Positions 9,033 to 19,737 are shown, counted from the first letter of the stretch. The stretch: DNA of 33,368 bases from an uncultured Candidatus Peribacteria bacterium (GCA_964389995.1 CAYMGN010000002.1:1-33368); one strand, 5' to 3'. Notes: generated by a model not told the origin, from the sequence alone. Numbers and translations: made by a program.

Positions 9033-9722
9033 TTATTCTGGAAGATTGATCTGGTAGCCGACCCCATGTACGGATTGGATGGTTTTATATTCAAAATCGG
9101 AGTCGATTTTTTTTCTTAATCTTTTGATTGTAGAAGGAACGACATTTGAGTGATATCCAGGCTTTGATTTCCAGATTTTTTGGAGAATTTCTTCAGTGGG
9201 GACGGCGTTGCCATGTTGTTCGACCAGAAGTTGGAGGATTTTTGTTTCGCGATTCGAAAGAGTGATGTCTTTACCGGATCTAGTTACTTTATTTTGCTGC
9301 CAGTAAAAGGCGAAATCGCCGATTTTTTCTACTCTTTGGGCGATAGAATAGCGGCGGCTGATGGCATTGATACGAGCCAAAAGTTCGGAATCATTAAAAG
9401 GTTTTGTGAGGTAGTCATCTACGCCTTTATTTAAAAGATTGATTTTGATATCGACCTGACTGATACCGCTAAGGACGAGGATGGGTATATTGATATGCTT
9501 TTTACGGAGGTGGAGGACTAGATTATCTCCCGATCGGCCGAGTAAAATAAGATCCAGTAAAAGTATATCTACTTTAGGAAAATTTGGTTTTTTGATGACG
9601 TCTTCGACTGAGGAGTATTGATTGACTTGATGGCCATGACTTTTCAGGACCTTTTCGAGCCTTTCTGACTGAGACTGATCATCTTCTACTAGAAGTATTT
9701 TCACGATGTCATATTTTATCAA
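9033..9722 (-). CDS. OmpR/PhoB-family response regulator
   Basis: KILLVEDD, ILLLDLILLG, IPILVLSG, DDYLTKP, and the C-terminal winged helix LSNRETKILQLL ... IQSVHGVGYQI. The track start is the TTG at 9722. The GTG at 9704 (VKILLVEDD) is a more typical N-terminus. Confidence 0.9.
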   Translation of the reverse strand: MIKYDIVKILLVEDDQSQSERLEKVLKSHGHQVNQYSSVEDVIKKPNFPKVDILLLDLILLGRSGDNLVLHLRKKHINIPILVLSGISQVDIKINLLNKGVDDYLTKPFNDSELLARINAISRRYSIAQRVEKIGDFAFYWQQNKVTRSGKDITLSNRETKILQLLVEQHGNAVPTEEILQKIWKSKPGYHSNVVPSTIKRLRKKIDSDFEYKTIQSVHGVGYQINLPE

Positions 9723-11654: not shown

Positions 11655-11683
11655 ATTCTACGATGAGGTTGGGGAAAAGACAA
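11655..11683 (-). promoter_or_regulatory. candidate promoter for topB (TTGTCT-N17-TAGAAT); only 8 nt separate the -10 from the ATG
   Basis: On the minus strand, -35 = 11678-11683 and -10 TAGAAT = 11655-11660. The start codon is at 11646-11644 and there is no SD box. Confidence 0.35.
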
Positions 11684-11761
11684 TTGACTTAGCAAAACAT
11701 TATTGAGAGTTGAGATCAGCTGTGTGATTAATTACAATTTTGTCATAACTAATTTAGCGAT

Positions 11762-12622
11762 ATGGCATGGAAAGTTTTGGGCTTGGGAGTGGCTACTTTG
11801 GACTATTTAGCTCTAATTCCTCACTATCCAAAGCCTGATGAGAAAATCCGCTGTAATGATGTGCTGACGCAAGGTGGGGGAAATTGCGCTAATACTTTAG
11901 TGGCACTTTCTAGATTAGGTGTAGAAACCACGATTATTTCATCTGTGGGAAGTGATCATGTCGGTGAGAAAATCAAGACTGACCTAGATAAAGAACGGGT
12001 GAACACGAGTTATATTGCTGTTAAAGGCTCGAATTCGCCATTTTCTTTTGTTGCGATTAGTGAAAATGATGGAAGCCGCACTATCTTTCATCGTGGAGGT
12101 CCGGAGTATGATTTAGATATTTTGCCTGATGAGATTGAAGTTATTTTGGAAGATTTTGATTGGCTGCACTTGGATGGACGTTTTGGTCTTAGTGCAATGA
12201 AGCTTGCAAAGTTAGCAAAAAAGATGGGAATGCGTATATCGGTGGAAGCAGAGCGAGTGGGACTGAATGCAGAGAATTTATTTAAATACGCGGATATAGT
12301 GTTTACAGCCAAGGATTTTCATCGAGATTATTTTGGAGACTTGAATTTGGTCAAACACTTAGATCGGATCATTGAACAAGGATCAAAAATTGCGATAGTG
12401 ACTTTAGGTAAAGAAGGGGCGCTAATGAAAACTGAGAAAAATGAATTCAAAATTGCAGCTGATAATGCGAAAGTAGTTGATACTACTGGCGCAGGAGATG
12501 TTTTTATTGGGGCTTTTATTTATGGATGCTTGAATCGTTGGAGCGAATTAAAGTGTCTGCAATTTGCGACAAAAGTAGCGTCTAAGAATTGTGAGGGGGT
12601 GGGGGGTAGATATTCTGTTTAA
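11762..12622 (+). CDS. PfkB-family carbohydrate kinase (ribokinase/ketohexokinase-like)
   Basis: N-terminal QGGGNCANT motif and the C-terminal PfkB signature VDTTGAGDVFIGAF. 286 aa. Confidence 0.85.
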   Translation: MAWKVLGLGVATLDYLALIPHYPKPDEKIRCNDVLTQGGGNCANTLVALSRLGVETTIISSVGSDHVGEKIKTDLDKERVNTSYIAVKGSNSPFSFVAISENDGSRTIFHRGGPEYDLDILPDEIEVILEDFDWLHLDGRFGLSAMKLAKLAKKMGMRISVEAERVGLNAENLFKYADIVFTAKDFHRDYFGDLNLVKHLDRIIEQGSKIAIVTLGKEGALMKTEKNEFKIAADNAKVVDTTGAGDVFIGAFIYGCLNRWSELKCLQFATKVASKNCEGVGGRYSV

Positions 12623-12710
12623 GAGTTTTTTGATAATTATCAACTAAATTTTAAATAATTATCAACTAGTACTTTTCTAATTATCAACTGTTTTTAGAAT
12701 AATTATCAAC
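12623..12710 (+). repeat. four tandem 22-bp units with an invariant 11-nt core TAATTATCAAC (exact 22-bp phasing)
   Basis: Cores end at 12644, 12666, 12688 and 12710. The other half of each unit is variable and T-rich. The array lies in the convergent gap between the PfkB kinase stop and the flotillin stop. Confidence 0.85.
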
Positions 12711-12758: not shown

Positions 12759-14165
12759 CTAGGCTTCAGTTTGCTGTGAATTGGCATCGGATTTTGAATC
12801 ACTTGCTTTGTTTGATTGCGATTGAGAGCGAGTGATCAGGTCTTTGACATCGATACCGAGGGTCTTGCGTAATCCCTCTAGCATACTGCCAAAACGGGCG
12901 CCGCTGTCAGCTGATGACATGAAGTCCATGAAGTTTTCCGGTTTTTGATCTCCGGTTTGGATGACCTTCATTTCAGCGTCTTCGTAGGCTTTGGCGATGG
13001 CGACTCCGACGTCTTTGTCTTTTTCGATGTATTTCTCGCCGAGTAGGGCCAAGAGACCTTCTTCAGCAAATTTGGAGAGGGCGATGGCCAGTTTTTCTTT
13101 GGCTTCGGCTTCGGCGAGACCTTTTTCGAGGATAGCCTTGGCTTCACCTTGACCGATGGCGGCGGCTTTTTCTCCCAGACCTTTACCAGCTAAGGATTCG
13201 GCTTCTCTCTGACCTTGTGCTTCGCGGATATTTGATTGCTTGATCCCTTCGGCTTCTTCAACCAGGGCTTCGGCTTCGATTCTTTTTTGCTCTACTTCCC
13301 TGACCTTGATCACGGCCATTTCTTTTTCGGTGGTGTTTTTCTTTTCTTCTTGAATGCTTTGGAGAGCTTTTTCTTCGGCGATACCGACTGTCTTTTTGCG
13401 GTCGGCATCACGAGCTTCGGTGGTTTCCTTGGCCACGATCTCTTCGATTTCCGCCTCCTTGCGAGCATTAATTTGAACGATCTTGGCTTCCTTTTCATTG
13501 ACGGCGACTTCTTCTTCGGACTTTCTTTTAATAAATGAGGAATGTTGGCGCATAATGGCAGAAATGATTTGCTCTTCACCATCGTCATCAGAGATATCCA
13601 TGAACTCGATATTGAGGACCTTCACGCCCCAAGCGGAAACTTGAGAACGCACTTCTTCTAAAAATGATTGTCCCAGGATGGAACGTTCGGTCATGATACC
13701 CTCGATCTCATTGGAAGCGAGGATTTTACGGACGGCACCACGGAGTACTTCGAGTAATTCGTTTTCGAGATCGGCAAAACTGGAGACACGTTGAGCGGCT
13801 TTGGCTGATTCACTAGCGTCAATCTGGAAAAAGGCGGTGACATCTACCTTGAAGGGCGCTTTTTTACTATCGTATGCGCGATATTTTTCTAAAGGGAGTT
13901 TAAAAATGGAAACGGGCATTTTTTTGACTTCGACACCGAAAAAAGGAATCCAAGAAGGAACTTTATAATAGACGTTTCCGACACTGGTGTCCTTACCATA
14001 GACCACGGATTCTTTGCGTCTTTGCACTACATGCACTTCATCGGGAGAAATAACTACCCGCCAAATGGCTGCTAGTATAAAAAGAATGACAAGAAAAGAC
14101 CCTCCGGCGATGGATAAAATAATTGTGAGTTCCATGGTAGATTGATAAGTTGGATAGAAAATCAA
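12759..14165 (-). CDS. SPFH/band-7 flotillin-like membrane scaffold protein
   Basis: N-terminal membrane helix (LTIILSIAGGSFLVILFILAAIW), an SPFH core, then a long E/A/K-rich coiled-coil (EAEALVEEAEGIKQ ... AEAEAKEKLA). The track start is a TTG. The ATG at 14135 (MELTII) is the more likely start. Confidence 0.85.
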   Translation of the reverse strand: MIFYPTYQSTMELTIILSIAGGSFLVILFILAAIWRVVISPDEVHVVQRRKESVVYGKDTSVGNVYYKVPSWIPFFGVEVKKMPVSIFKLPLEKYRAYDSKKAPFKVDVTAFFQIDASESAKAAQRVSSFADLENELLEVLRGAVRKILASNEIEGIMTERSILGQSFLEEVRSQVSAWGVKVLNIEFMDISDDDGEEQIISAIMRQHSSFIKRKSEEEVAVNEKEAKIVQINARKEAEIEEIVAKETTEARDADRKKTVGIAEEKALQSIQEEKKNTTEKEMAVIKVREVEQKRIEAEALVEEAEGIKQSNIREAQGQREAESLAGKGLGEKAAAIGQGEAKAILEKGLAEAEAKEKLAIALSKFAEEGLLALLGEKYIEKDKDVGVAIAKAYEDAEMKVIQTGDQKPENFMDFMSSADSGARFGSMLEGLRKTLGIDVKDLITRSQSQSNKASDSKSDANSQQTEA

Positions 14166-14192: not shown

Positions 14193-15131
14193 TTGTCAAA
14201 TGCATTGACAACCGAAGCAGAAAATCTTAGGATTGTGTACTTTAAAAATCAAATGTCGGAAAATCCAAAAATAATTATCGACGTTGTCTGTGAGCATTGG
14301 GATATGCGGCCTGGGGCTGAACGTACTAGTGATCAAGCGGCAATCCAGATTGATGAGGAAGGAAATATTGTTACGATGAAGGCTGCAAGGGCTGAGAGCT
14401 CTGATGTGGCCAGCTTTCTCAATGCCCCTAGTGAAGGGCGGGAAATGATGGCGTTTGAGGAGTTGGAAGCAAGTCTGCAAAGAGAATATGCCGGGCGACG
14501 AGGAGTAGAAAAGCGGGGAATTGCTGCTCATGCAAAGCATTTTTGTTTGGAGTTGGGGTTGGCGGATGGCGATCGATTTGATTTGGAGCGACTGAGGGAT
14601 TTGCGGATTGTGGATCTGGGTTGTGGTGCTGAGCATCATGAGCGCAGTGGTGAAGCCAATTTTTATCCCTGGTTGGTGCGAGGGCTGCATTTATTGGGGG
14701 CCGATGTGACCGGGGTGGATCGTGTTTATCCGAAATTCGTTGATGGTGAGCCGGCGGTGGAGCAATGGGATTTTTTGCAGGCTGATTTGATGCAACCAGA
14801 TGCCATTGGTGCGATAGCGGATAACTCAGTGGATATCGTCAATGCGAGATTGTTAATCGGTTATGACGATCGATATTACACTTCCCCATCATTGAATAAC
14901 GGTTTTTGTCCCAACCTCGATAACAATTTATATCTGGACGCTGAGAGAATTATCTGCGAACACGTGTTGCGTATTTTAAAGCCGGAAGGTCTCTTTTTGA
15001 TCAACCATAAACATCTCTATCAAAAAGTTGGGGGGCCGCTTTTGTATTCATTGGAGATGATCAATGGGCATGGTTTGGCGAGGATAGAAAATATCCAGCA
15101 TGTGGATAAGTCTAGCGTGAATTTGGGGTGA
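14193..15131 (+). CDS. class I SAM-dependent methyltransferase-like protein with an uncharacterised ~120-aa N-terminal region
   Basis: Motif I IVDLGCGAEH, an acidic residue after strand 2 (VTGVDR), then DFLQADL and LRILKPEGLFLI. The track start is the TTG at 14193; an in-frame ATG lies at 14253. Confidence 0.65.
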   Translation: MSNALTTEAENLRIVYFKNQMSENPKIIIDVVCEHWDMRPGAERTSDQAAIQIDEEGNIVTMKAARAESSDVASFLNAPSEGREMMAFEELEASLQREYAGRRGVEKRGIAAHAKHFCLELGLADGDRFDLERLRDLRIVDLGCGAEHHERSGEANFYPWLVRGLHLLGADVTGVDRVYPKFVDGEPAVEQWDFLQADLMQPDAIGAIADNSVDIVNARLLIGYDDRYYTSPSLNNGFCPNLDNNLYLDAERIICEHVLRILKPEGLFLINHKHLYQKVGGPLLYSLEMINGHGLARIENIQHVDKSSVNLG

Positions 15132-16077: not shown

Positions 16078-16728
16078 ATGTGGATAAAAACAATGGCTAT
16101 GAAAAAGTTTTTTATTTTAATTTCGTTGCTGAGTTTTGCGGCCTGTTCTGCCTCGAACAATGATTCCGAAAAGGTTGAGGATCTTGATCTACCTGAAGAA
16201 GAAGCGGTGGCTGCTCCGGAAGTTTCGCTGGAGATTGGTGAAGAAAAAGAGCAAAGCGATGTCCGGGAAGATGGTCCAGAGAGCTTGGAGGAAAGCTTTT
16301 ATGCGCTTCCTGATCAGTATTTTATGGCGCCGCTGACTGAGGAGGAGAGGCAAGAGGCGATTGTGGTTTTGGATCCGGACAACTATTATCTAGAGTTTCA
16401 GCCGCGGATGTGGGATGGGAGTGGGAGTTTTGCGATTTTTATTGATCCGGATGGAGACTATCTCTATGCCTTGGAGACCAAAGGGTGTGGGCCGATTTGT
16501 GAGCAGGAATTGTATTTTTTGCAGTGGATGGAGGGGAGTTTTGTGGATGTGACAGAGCAATACTTGCCGACGGAGTTGGATCTGAGTCCACCGGCGGCCG
16601 ATGCTGAGTTTGCGCCTTTGTTTGTGCTCCCGCAGTTTGGTACGCGGATTGAAGTGATCAATCAGTATGATCAGGAAGTTTTGGCGGAGCTGGTTTGGAC
16701 TGGAGGGAGGTTTAGTTTGGAACAATGA
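16078..16728 (+). CDS. acidic lipoprotein of unknown function
   Basis: Signal peptide plus lipobox MKKFFILISLLSFAAC. The likely start is the ATG at 16093 or 16099, because TATAAT at 16074-16079 overlaps the track start. The mature N-terminus is rich in D and E. Confidence 0.7.
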   Translation: MWIKTMAMKKFFILISLLSFAACSASNNDSEKVEDLDLPEEEAVAAPEVSLEIGEEKEQSDVREDGPESLEESFYALPDQYFMAPLTEEERQEAIVVLDPDNYYLEFQPRMWDGSGSFAIFIDPDGDYLYALETKGCGPICEQELYFLQWMEGSFVDVTEQYLPTELDLSPPAADAEFAPLFVLPQFGTRIEVINQYDQEVLAELVWTGGRFSLEQ

Positions 16729-18724: not shown

Positions 18725-19737
18725 ATGGAAATCGGCATAGATAGCTTCGCGGCGGTGCGGGCAGGGGAAGAAAATAGTGAGAAGGCGGGCGTGGATTCGG
18801 TGGCGGATTTGCTCGAAAGGGTGGAAAAGGCGGAGGAAGCGGGGTTGGATCTGTTTGGGATTGGGGAGCATCATCGGGAAGAGTATTTTGATTCGGCGCC
18901 GGCGGTGTTGTTGGGGGCGGCGGCGGCGAGGACAGAAAAAATTAAGCTGGTGAGTGCGGTGACGGTGCTGAGTGCTGCGGATCCGGTGCGGGTTTTTCAG
19001 CAGTTTGCGACGGTGGATTTGATTTCGCAGGGGCGGGCGGAAGTAGTGGCTGGAAGGGGTTCTTTTTCGGAAGCTTTTCCGCTTTTTGGTTTTAGTTTTG
19101 AGGACTATGATGAGCTTTTTGAAGAAAAATTGGAACTGCTCCTAAAAATCCGTAAGCAGAAAAAAATTAGCTGGGCGGGGAGATTTCGAGCACCGCTAGA
19201 TGAGCAGGAAATCTATCCGAGACCACTGCAAAATCCCCTACCGGTTTGGGTGGGAGTAGGTGGTACGCCAGAGTCATTCGTGAGAGCGGGACGGCTGGGA
19301 TTGCCTTTGATGATCGCGATTATCGGGGGGAGCCACGGCGATTTAAGCCGCTGGTGGATCTCTATAGAGCAACGGGGATGGAGGCTGGACATGATCCAAA
19401 AAAACTAAAAGTGGGGATGCACGCGATTGGATATCTTTCAGAAAATAAAGAAAAAGCGATGGACGAATTTTATCCCGGGCATGCCAAGGCTTTCAATAAA
19501 ATCGGACGCGAAAGAGGTTGGTCGCCGGTGACGAGGGCCAGTGTGGAGAGGCAGGCTGATGAGCATGGAGCATTCTTAATCGGTGATCCGCAAGAAGTGG
19601 CAGCAAAAATCAAGAGACATAGCGAGACGCTCGGTGGGTTGTCGCGGGTGACCTTTCAAATGGATACCGGTGGGTTGAGTCAGGAGCAGCTTTTGCGATC
19701 GATTGGGTTGATTGGGGAGGTGAAGGAGAGGCTTTAA
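18725..19737 (+). pseudogene. LLM-class (luciferase-like) flavin-dependent oxidoreductase split by a 1-nt frameshift in a G6 run
   Basis: ORFs 18725-19408 and 19246-19737 together form one ~337-aa LLM protein (GIGEHH ... [16 protein letters not shown] ... LMIAIIGG / [13 protein letters not shown] ... FQMD). The frames meet at GGGGGG (19325-19330). A seventh G would give [11 protein letters not shown]. Confidence 0.75.

Follow-up and report, generated by a model that had tools for sequence, protein, structure and literature searches.

A four-unit, 22-bp-phased direct-repeat array between two convergent genes of an uncultured Candidatus Peribacteria bacterium: a possible transcription-related docking element

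Tandem direct repeats with periods close to 22 bp are known from several protein-binding DNA elements. The classical 22-bp iterons are those of pPS10, R6K and the lactococcal theta plasmids, the right end of Tn7 carries four 22-bp TnsB sites, and the sites of OmpR/PhoB-family regulators follow one another contiguously at 20-22 bp, as in ompF F1-F3, ompC C1-C3 and the tandem pho boxes. Phased direct repeats are also the geometry of type Ib/II plasmid centromeres (R1 parC, pSK41 parC), whereas the parS sites of chromosomes are palindromic and not built of direct repeats; LytTR sites are 9-bp direct repeats with a 12-13-bp spacer. A related arrangement with a shorter word is found at ori2 of Vibrio cholerae, where six regularly spaced head-to-tail 12-mers serve RctB (PMC6212839). 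Here we describe an array of this general kind from the genome of an uncultured Candidatus Peribacteria bacterium (1.39 Mb in 154 contigs, 91.7% complete), located in a stretch of 33,368 nucleotides that was analysed as a whole and is referred to below as the window.

The array occupies positions 12623..12710 on the plus strand and consists of four 22-bp units, each made of an 11-nt variable, T-rich spacer followed by an invariant 11-nt core, TAATTATCAAC, which reads GTTGATAATTA on the minus strand. The four plus-strand cores start at 12634, 12656, 12678 and 12700 (12634..12644, 12656..12666, 12678..12688 and 12700..12710), with start-to-start distances of 22, 22 and 22; together with its flank, the fourth copy gives a minus-strand reading that starts TGTTGATA. 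Core 1 and its left flank form a perfect 14-bp palindrome, TTGATAATTATCAA (12630..12643); around this centre, an imperfect palindrome of 38 bp (12618-12655, 80% complementary) takes in the stop codon of the pfkB gene on the left. Tandem Repeats Finder (TRF) called the repeat at 12627-12710, with a period of 22, 3.8 copies and 73% matches. With up to one mismatch, the core matches the window at 8 places, where 0.71 would be expected, and the largest count in 100 dinucleotide-preserving shuffles of the window was 3; as 8 matches were never reached by the shuffles, a chance origin is excluded. The four same-orientation cores at 22-bp phase described in the original prediction are thus borne out by the sequence positions, by TRF and by the shuffles, and so are its variable T-rich half-units, in which 10 of 11 columns vary and 52% of the bases are T.

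On its left, the array is flanked by a gene for a PfkB-family sugar/nucleoside kinase (11762..12622, plus strand), and on its right by a gene for an SPFH/Band 7 (flotillin-like) protein (12759..14165, minus strand). As the former ends at 12622 and the latter at 12759 on the opposite strand, the 136-bp gap between them is convergent and lies between two 3' ends, and the kinase and flotillin stop codons confirm the placement that had been proposed. Most of this gap is the 88-bp array itself. Among the 232 convergent gaps of the genome, which have a median length of 18 bp on rough open reading frame calls, it ranks 173rd. We found no mobile-element or plasmid genes in the window, and the flanking genes are ordinary chromosomal genes; dnaA is located on another contig (C19). 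The junction at which the array lies is a synteny break.

The distribution of differences within the array is uneven. An alignment of the four units shows no variation in any of the 11 core columns; the probability of 10 variable columns leaving an unbroken run of 11 invariant ones is P = 3.4e-4. Pairwise identity between spacers is 45%, against 38% expected from composition, so that the spacers appear near saturation; had the cores drifted at the spacer rate, the chance of finding 33 positions unaltered would be P ~5e-12. Although the spacers are scrambled, the 22-bp phase is still exact. Since recent slippage would leave identical spacers and an old neutral repeat would have damaged cores, we infer constraint on both core and spacing. 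The cores thus look constrained rather than freshly produced by slippage, and the array is real and non-random, and probably functional.

We found no second locus of this kind in the genome. A scan for 8-mers repeated three times at equal spacing, with which TRF agrees, identified the array as the sole non-coding phased-core array in 1.39 Mb, after nine other matches had been set aside by their spacing (multiples of three) and/or their low-complexity words, and no second core cluster was found on either strand of the whole genome with up to two mismatches. The exact core TAATTATCAAC occurs outside the array only at C9:9753, within a gene that we take, from a by-eye reading, to be quinolinate-synthase-like, and at C128:99. 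With up to one mismatch, there are 60 matches against 29 in a reversed-genome control, most of them coding. A regulon of single cores was considered and rejected, with the copies elsewhere rated as background-level and mostly coding. In intergenic DNA, the 10-mer TTGATAATTA is found 8 times against 2.3 expected, and 7 of the 8 belong to the array or to a pair of words on contig C128; a pair of the shorter word TTGATAAT on contig C25 sits within a gene for a protein of 1364 aa. The search for further arrays across the genome, put forward as a check of the original prediction, therefore returned none but a two-copy relative on C128, and with one locus and one such relative there is no family of arrays.

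The C128 pair reads TTTGATAATTA-AAGTACTTC-GTTGATAATTA, with the two words 20 bp apart and 9 nt between them, and precedes an ECF sigma factor gene by 120-150 bp, in sense orientation. It has the spacer word AGTACTT in common with units 2-3 of the array, to which it is 84% identical over ~42 nt (E 9.5e-4), and the two loci probably have a common origin. The contig may belong to another organism: no join between C128 and C2 was found by end overlap, and the sigma gene has no orthologue in 55 genomes of the family.

Outside the genome, the array was not recovered. With up to two mismatches allowed, none of the other 55 family genomes has the two-core pattern, the DNA of the region has no match in 40 relatives, and exact-protein look-ups gave no match. 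The orthologues of the flotillin gene in related genera (71-73% identical) and those of the topoisomerase III (topo III) gene (76-87%) have other neighbours and no array; none of the further flotillin homologues in public assemblies (68-75%) has a pfkB neighbour, and the core motif is absent from the one long gap read downstream of a public flotillin homologue. In a search of 5.8 billion proteins, identity to the PfkB protein peaks at 49%; the top flotillin homologue has 75%, JGI metagenome matches reach at most 31%, and no closer relative was found in any collection searched.

Such a distribution is also what a functionless tandem repeat could show, that is, a 22-bp slippage duplication tolerated in a convergent gap under low constraint. 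The array is lineage-specific, unique in its genome and not found in relatives, its junction is itself not conserved, it comes without a partner gene, and its TRF score is that of an ordinary imperfect repeat. We nevertheless consider this explanation unlikely: one half of each unit has taken all the substitutions (P = 3.4e-4), leaving perfect cores beside nearly random spacers, the phase is exact, the genome is compact, with its median convergent gap of 18 bp, and a related copy lies in the 5' region of a gene on another contig, C128.

What the cores might bind is suggested by their promoter-like content, which was at odds with the original description of the region as free of promoters. On the minus strand, GTTGATAATTA holds both TTGATA, a 5/6 match to the -35 consensus, and GATAAT, a 5/6 match to the -10 consensus that starts 2 nt after TTGATA and keeps the critical A2 and T6. 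Because of this 2-nt offset, any unit and the next one together make up a promoter of the sigma-70 type, with its hexamers 18 nt apart, and three such overlapping sigma-70-like matches (TTGATA-18-GATAAT, 10/12 each, two units each) are found at 12636..12709 on the minus strand, pointing at the 3' end of pfkB. One further match, TTGATA-18-AATAAT, lies on the plus strand (12630..12659) and points at the 3' end of the flotillin gene. In line with this, a promoter scan of a 700-bp region found 6 sites, 4 of them within the array, whereas shuffled sequence gave 1.6 +/- 1.2. In the C128 pair, the hexamers are arranged as TTGATA-16-GATAAT, which is the best promoter candidate upstream of its sigma gene. 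In this genome, TTGATA is a working -35 variant, given the promoters of the form TTGATA(ATTT)-17-TATAAT at C9:22954 and C35:2131, where TTGATAATTT-N13-TATAAT (TTGATA-17-TATAAT) lies 55-56 nt upstream of genes; promoters of the TTGACA and TTGACT types are also common. That both hexamers are carried by a single 8-mer, TTGATAAT, means that tandem duplication of a unit of ~21 bp generates promoters automatically.

Since the repeated word is a promoter-type motif, we read the locus, with moderate confidence, as a transcription-related docking array for RNA polymerase and/or a regulator and, as part of the same judgement, as a lineage-specific cis element that would be selectively maintained. According to this reading, the four recognition words GTTGATAATTA would be bound by protein, either RNA polymerase holoenzyme and/or a regulator with a footprint of ~11 bp; as the words are about two helical turns apart, the bound proteins would occupy roughly the same side of the helix, and cooperative binding would be possible. 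The docking zone would be the place where the pfkB and flotillin transcripts meet, and its output could consist of transcripts antisense to pfkB or of a held protein that blocks read-through. A docking element would also be the simplest reading that covers both the array and the C128 locus.

As a plain promoter, the array would be unusual in several respects. The nearest gene start in the sense of its minus-strand promoter-like sites, that of the topo III gene, is ~1 kb off, past the antisense pfkB gene, and close upstream of the topo III gene lies a separate motif that also occurs in the nearest relative. Furthermore, the cores have 11 invariant positions where 8 would be needed by both hexamers, the -10-like element is GATAAT, not TATAAT, and the spacer measures 18 nt, not 17. 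The 11 invariant positions, the 18-nt spacer, the ~1 kb of antisense gene and the separate topo III motif favour an antisense or roadblock effect, so that the output of the docking array would more likely be an effect of this kind at the convergent junction than gene expression.

Candidates for the regulator were sought among known families, with none identified. The window encodes two OmpR-type regulators (1692-2378 and 9033-9722), as well as proteins of unknown function at 14193-15131 and 16078-16728, and the neighbouring proteins of unknown function matched no DNA-binding family. LytTR sites were dismissed, as the genome holds no LytTR gene (PF04397), and so was a Fur box (7-1-7 or 19-bp GATAAT-hexamer), the 6-0-6 symmetry being present in copy 1 only. 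The genome has one Fur-family gene, whose own control region lacks the core word; the His-rich gene beside it is, on a by-eye reading, presumably a ZnuA-like zinc-uptake gene, and this neighbour suggests that the Fur-family gene is Zur.

The position of the array just downstream of both stop codons could alternatively point to a function at the RNA level, as a terminator hairpin or a repeated protein-binding motif in shared 3' UTRs. The palindrome of unit 1 can indeed pair with any other unit, for example in a perfect 11-nt stem between 12630-12640 and 12655-12665. However, fold z-scores are only -1.95 and -1.24, a terminator-like site was not found, Rfam gave no match at E <= 1, and RNA motifs do not need an exact 22-nt phase, all of which leaves an RNA element very doubtful.

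A role in replication was also proposed originally, with the array as a cluster of DnaA boxes, either origin-like or a titration site, which would be datA-like. The cores do contain four copies of TTATCAACT, which is 2 mismatches away from TTATCCACA, differing at positions 6 and 9 (2/9). Yet the octamer TTATCAAC is not special, as it occurs 96 times in the genome, and conserved bases continue 5' of the box (TAA), a feature not accounted for by DnaA. Moreover, in an alignment with its E. coli counterpart of DNA-bound structure, domain IV of the DnaA protein keeps R399, H434, T435 and H439, with D433N, so that a near-canonical box would be expected. Taken together, the two mismatches in nine positions, the abundance of TTATCAAC and the near-canonical domain IV lend this reading no support, and we regard it as barely credible. 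The suggested GC-skew check gave the same picture for the origin. In 1-kb bins, the skew, which is very strong in this genome, lies between +0.18 and +0.36 to the left of the array and between +0.13 and +0.48 to its right, except for -0.01 over the flotillin gene, and the cumulative skew over the 33 kb rises steadily from 0.29 to 8.52, with a dip of 0.01 over the flotillin gene. The array is thus at no skew extremum. A replication origin or terminus was rejected, as there is no skew switch at the array and skew switches are found on C8 only; dnaA, on C19, is likewise not at a skew switch.

A centromere-like partition site of the parS or parC type, also among the roles proposed, has in its favour that the array is a genome-unique set of phased direct repeats. 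However, the genome has no match to ParB_N, for which the controls matched, and no AAA_31 ParA-type ATPase, which was matched in 14 of 14 control genomes, and no small RHH or ParR-like gene adjoins the array. With ParB_N and AAA_31 not found in the genome, partition finds no support and is highly improbable.

The iteron analogy goes further. In addition to its four same-orientation 22-bp repeats, the array has an inverted half-repeat at one end, similar to a Rep operator, and it could be a relic or decoy of a Rep3-like iteron replicon, either the remnant of an integrated plasmid origin or a set of half-iterons that titrate or handcuff an initiator encoded elsewhere. The latter has a parallel in chromosome 2 of Vibrio cholerae, where an off-origin iteron cluster damps initiation (PMC6212839). 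Six iterons with the TTGATAATTA core and a period of 21-22 bp are found in Paraclostridium ghonii (NZ_JAUSWG010000017.1), one of the five loci returned by an exact-pattern scan of GTDB genomes; they (TGTCAYNTTGATAATTAAANN, 88% matches) lie directly upstream of a Rep3_N+Rep3_C gene, as in a textbook iteron replicon, and Rep3 genes with 21-22-bp iterons were detected in 5 of 200 other genomes of the order, including three of the same family. In these six same-order loci, each array shares a short locus with its rep gene, and the iterons are 86-100% identical over the unit, mostly 97-100%, the value of 86% coming from one array of longer span. In contrast to these iterons, in which the whole unit is conserved, the array conserves 11 of 22 positions only, and without an initiator its core should have decayed too; no rep gene adjoins it, the genome has no Rep3_N match even at E 0.1, and plasmid and phage records give only chance-level matches. 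A relic or decoy therefore appears improbable. Of the iteron resemblance originally noted, the four head-to-tail 22-bp units stand, while conservation of the full unit and a Rep3 gene are wanting. Considering the half-unit conservation, the kinase and flotillin neighbours and the lack of Rep3_N matches in the genome and of mobile genes in the window, the array is, as judged from sequence comparison, iteron-like in geometry and not a member of the family, and the analogy is apt in architecture only.

The same geometry would fit a solitary transposon end of the Tn7/Mu type, or another recombination site, with a terminal TGT and four subterminal transposase sites. The minus strand reads TGTTGATAATTA, its outermost unit beginning with TGTTGATA, followed by three more copies of GTTGATAATTA at 22 bp, and C128 carries 2-3 sites oriented as those of the opposite end would be. 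The right arm of a V. cholerae Tn7-like element, which came up in a text search for the core, resembles the array: the right-arm primer of Tn6677/VchCAST contains TGTTGATAC...TGATAATTAC...TTGATAATTATCAC, with sites ~20 bp apart (10.1101/2022.05.30.494051). The synteny break at the junction would also fit an insertion. Against this, the rve matches of the genome are open frames of 186-284 aa on IS-like contigs without the motif, none of them TnsB-sized; TniQ has no match in the genome, and TniB has one that lacks specificity, as it is seen in 14 of 14 control genomes too. There is no inverted partner array in the genome, there are 93 occurrences of TGTTGATA by itself, the would-be 5-bp flanks (CGAAG vs AGCCT) are unlike and give no target duplication, and ordinary chromosomal genes, with no mobile cargo, lie on both sides. 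We consider a transposon end very unlikely.

If the array is indeed a docking site, it would offer a rare handle on regulation or chromosome organisation in an uncultured lineage with a small genome; to our knowledge, almost no cis-elements or binding proteins have been described for such lineages. More speculatively, and in our view with little likelihood, it could be a roadblock insulator between convergent genes, or a set of half-iterons titrating the initiator of an invading Rep3-type plasmid, perhaps as part of a wider 22-bp-phased class. An insulator would stop read-through where the genome leaves almost no room for terminators, and a half-iteron decoy would amount to a form of plasmid interference. 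As the element is known from one metagenome-assembled genome, its practical value is limited.

Compared with the systems introduced above, the array combines features of several. 1) Rep3 iterons share with it at least four head-to-tail 21-22-bp repeats, an inverted half-repeat at the end and a high AT content, but the array is chromosomal and far from any skew switch. 2) RctB sites share the short core of 11-12 nt, the variable spacers and the regular head-to-tail spacing, and provide a precedent for initiator sites away from the origin; they differ in that, for the array, no RctB or Rep initiator was found, the core lacks GATC, there is no second replicon and the locus is single. 3) Tn7-like arms share the terminal TGT, the 3-4 same-orientation sites at ~20-22 bp and the word TGATAATTA. 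4) OmpR/PhoB sites share the 3-4 same-orientation units with one conserved half and one weaker, A/T-rich half; however, their arrays lie just upstream of the promoter of an annotated gene, whereas the array lies between two 3' ends, and its invariant core of 11 nt is longer than the 6-7-nt OmpR/PhoB half-site. 5) Two Parabacteroides loci (L011 and L014), which were among the five returned by an exact-pattern scan of 596 Gb of GTDB sequence, carry 22-bp-phased palindromic units with GTTGATAATTATC. Their cores are palindromic and occur in an unrelated lineage, whereas the array is a single locus of direct repeats, and the likeness between the cores themselves is a product of the search pattern. 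What the Parabacteroides loci and the array have in common is the exact 22-bp phase, a conserved core of ~10-16 nt, drifting DNA in between and an intergenic position in a housekeeping region, a geometry that suggests a recurring, unexplained class of elements.

In the organism's own assembly (G000), dnaA lies at C19:6173-7657 in surroundings of uniformly positive GC skew, so the origin is not adjacent to dnaA in this assembly. On contig C8, a block of ∼9 kb (12-20.5 kb, within a region of ∼9-21 kb) carries inverted skew (about -0.3) between positive-skew flanks, which suggests that the block was inverted or inserted, or that the contig is a chimeric join. Contig C2 runs on past the right end of the window (about 33.4-34.3 kb), and its final ∼50 nt are found again at the termini of C51, C91, C119, C83 and C96 and also within C37, a sign of a multicopy element at which the assembly breaks; at the other end, C2:1-50 overlaps C141 at its beginning, in reverse complement.

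In the window, a 16-nt word, AAGTCAATTGTCTTTT (11678-11693), immediately precedes the topoisomerase III gene; it is conserved at this place in G000 and in its nearest available relative (L042, G044:C164) and is a candidate promoter or operator. Also in the window, a luciferase-like monooxygenase is encoded in two overlapping frames, 18725-19408 and 19246-19737, which cover positions 8-202 and 196-309 of the Pfam profile, respectively; the split is probably a frameshift, which would mark the gene as a pseudogene unless it is an assembly error. Elsewhere in the genome (C25:47-6829 and C125:2302-2480), a CRISPR array with the 36-nt repeat GTTTGATTGCTCTTGGAAGTAGAAGAATGGTTAAAAC and a period of ∼70 bp is accompanied by three short ORFs, similar in size to cas2, cas1 and cas4, and by a 1364-aa ORF that has the size of an effector. 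At C78:1403-4017, a gene for a Fur-family regulator, probably Zur, has on one side a divergently transcribed gene for a His-rich protein and on the other one for a ZnuA-like binding protein (read by eye) with a long His/Asp/Glu-rich repeat, in what appears to be a zinc-uptake locus.

Contig C128 of the same assembly has a two-copy version of the core of the window array (L006:62-120), upstream of a set of three genes (L006:231-1461). Read by eye, these encode an ECF-type sigma factor, which at 132 aa is possibly truncated, a membrane protein whose gene overlaps, and a periplasmic, proline-rich protein of LTXXQ/Spy-like type. As no orthologue of the sigma gene was found in 55 family genomes, C128 may have been recently acquired or mis-binned.

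Among the loci from the pattern scan of GTDB genomes, two in Parabacteroides carry palindromic units in 22-bp phase within housekeeping intergenic DNA: GTTGATAATTATCAAC in Parabacteroides chinchillae, upstream of prmA (L011:3796-3885), and TTGCCGAYATATRTCGGCAA in Parabacteroides sp. PH5-46, between SIR2 and FKBP genes (L014:884-965).

Bins from the bacterial order to which the window organism belongs have genes for Rep3-family initiators, on the short contigs G150:C26, G200:C106, G062:C87 (two genes), G058:C142 and G070:C73 (loci L044, L045, L046, L050, L047 and L048). Each locus has a tandem array of its own, with units of 21-22 bp in 2-5.5 copies at 86-100% identity (mostly 97-100%), and these contigs are candidate plasmids of this small-genome lineage.

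The scan also returned a 47.7-kb contig of Paraclostridium ghonii (NZ_JAUSWG010000017.1), on which six iterons, TGTCAYNTTGATAATTAAANN, with a period of 21-22 bp (L013:1783-1923), precede an inverted GGTGTCAT...ATGACACC and lie directly upstream of an initiator gene with Rep3_N and Rep3_C domains (L013:1996-3099). This contig is a classical iteron replicon, and its Rep3 iterons and the window array have the core word in common.
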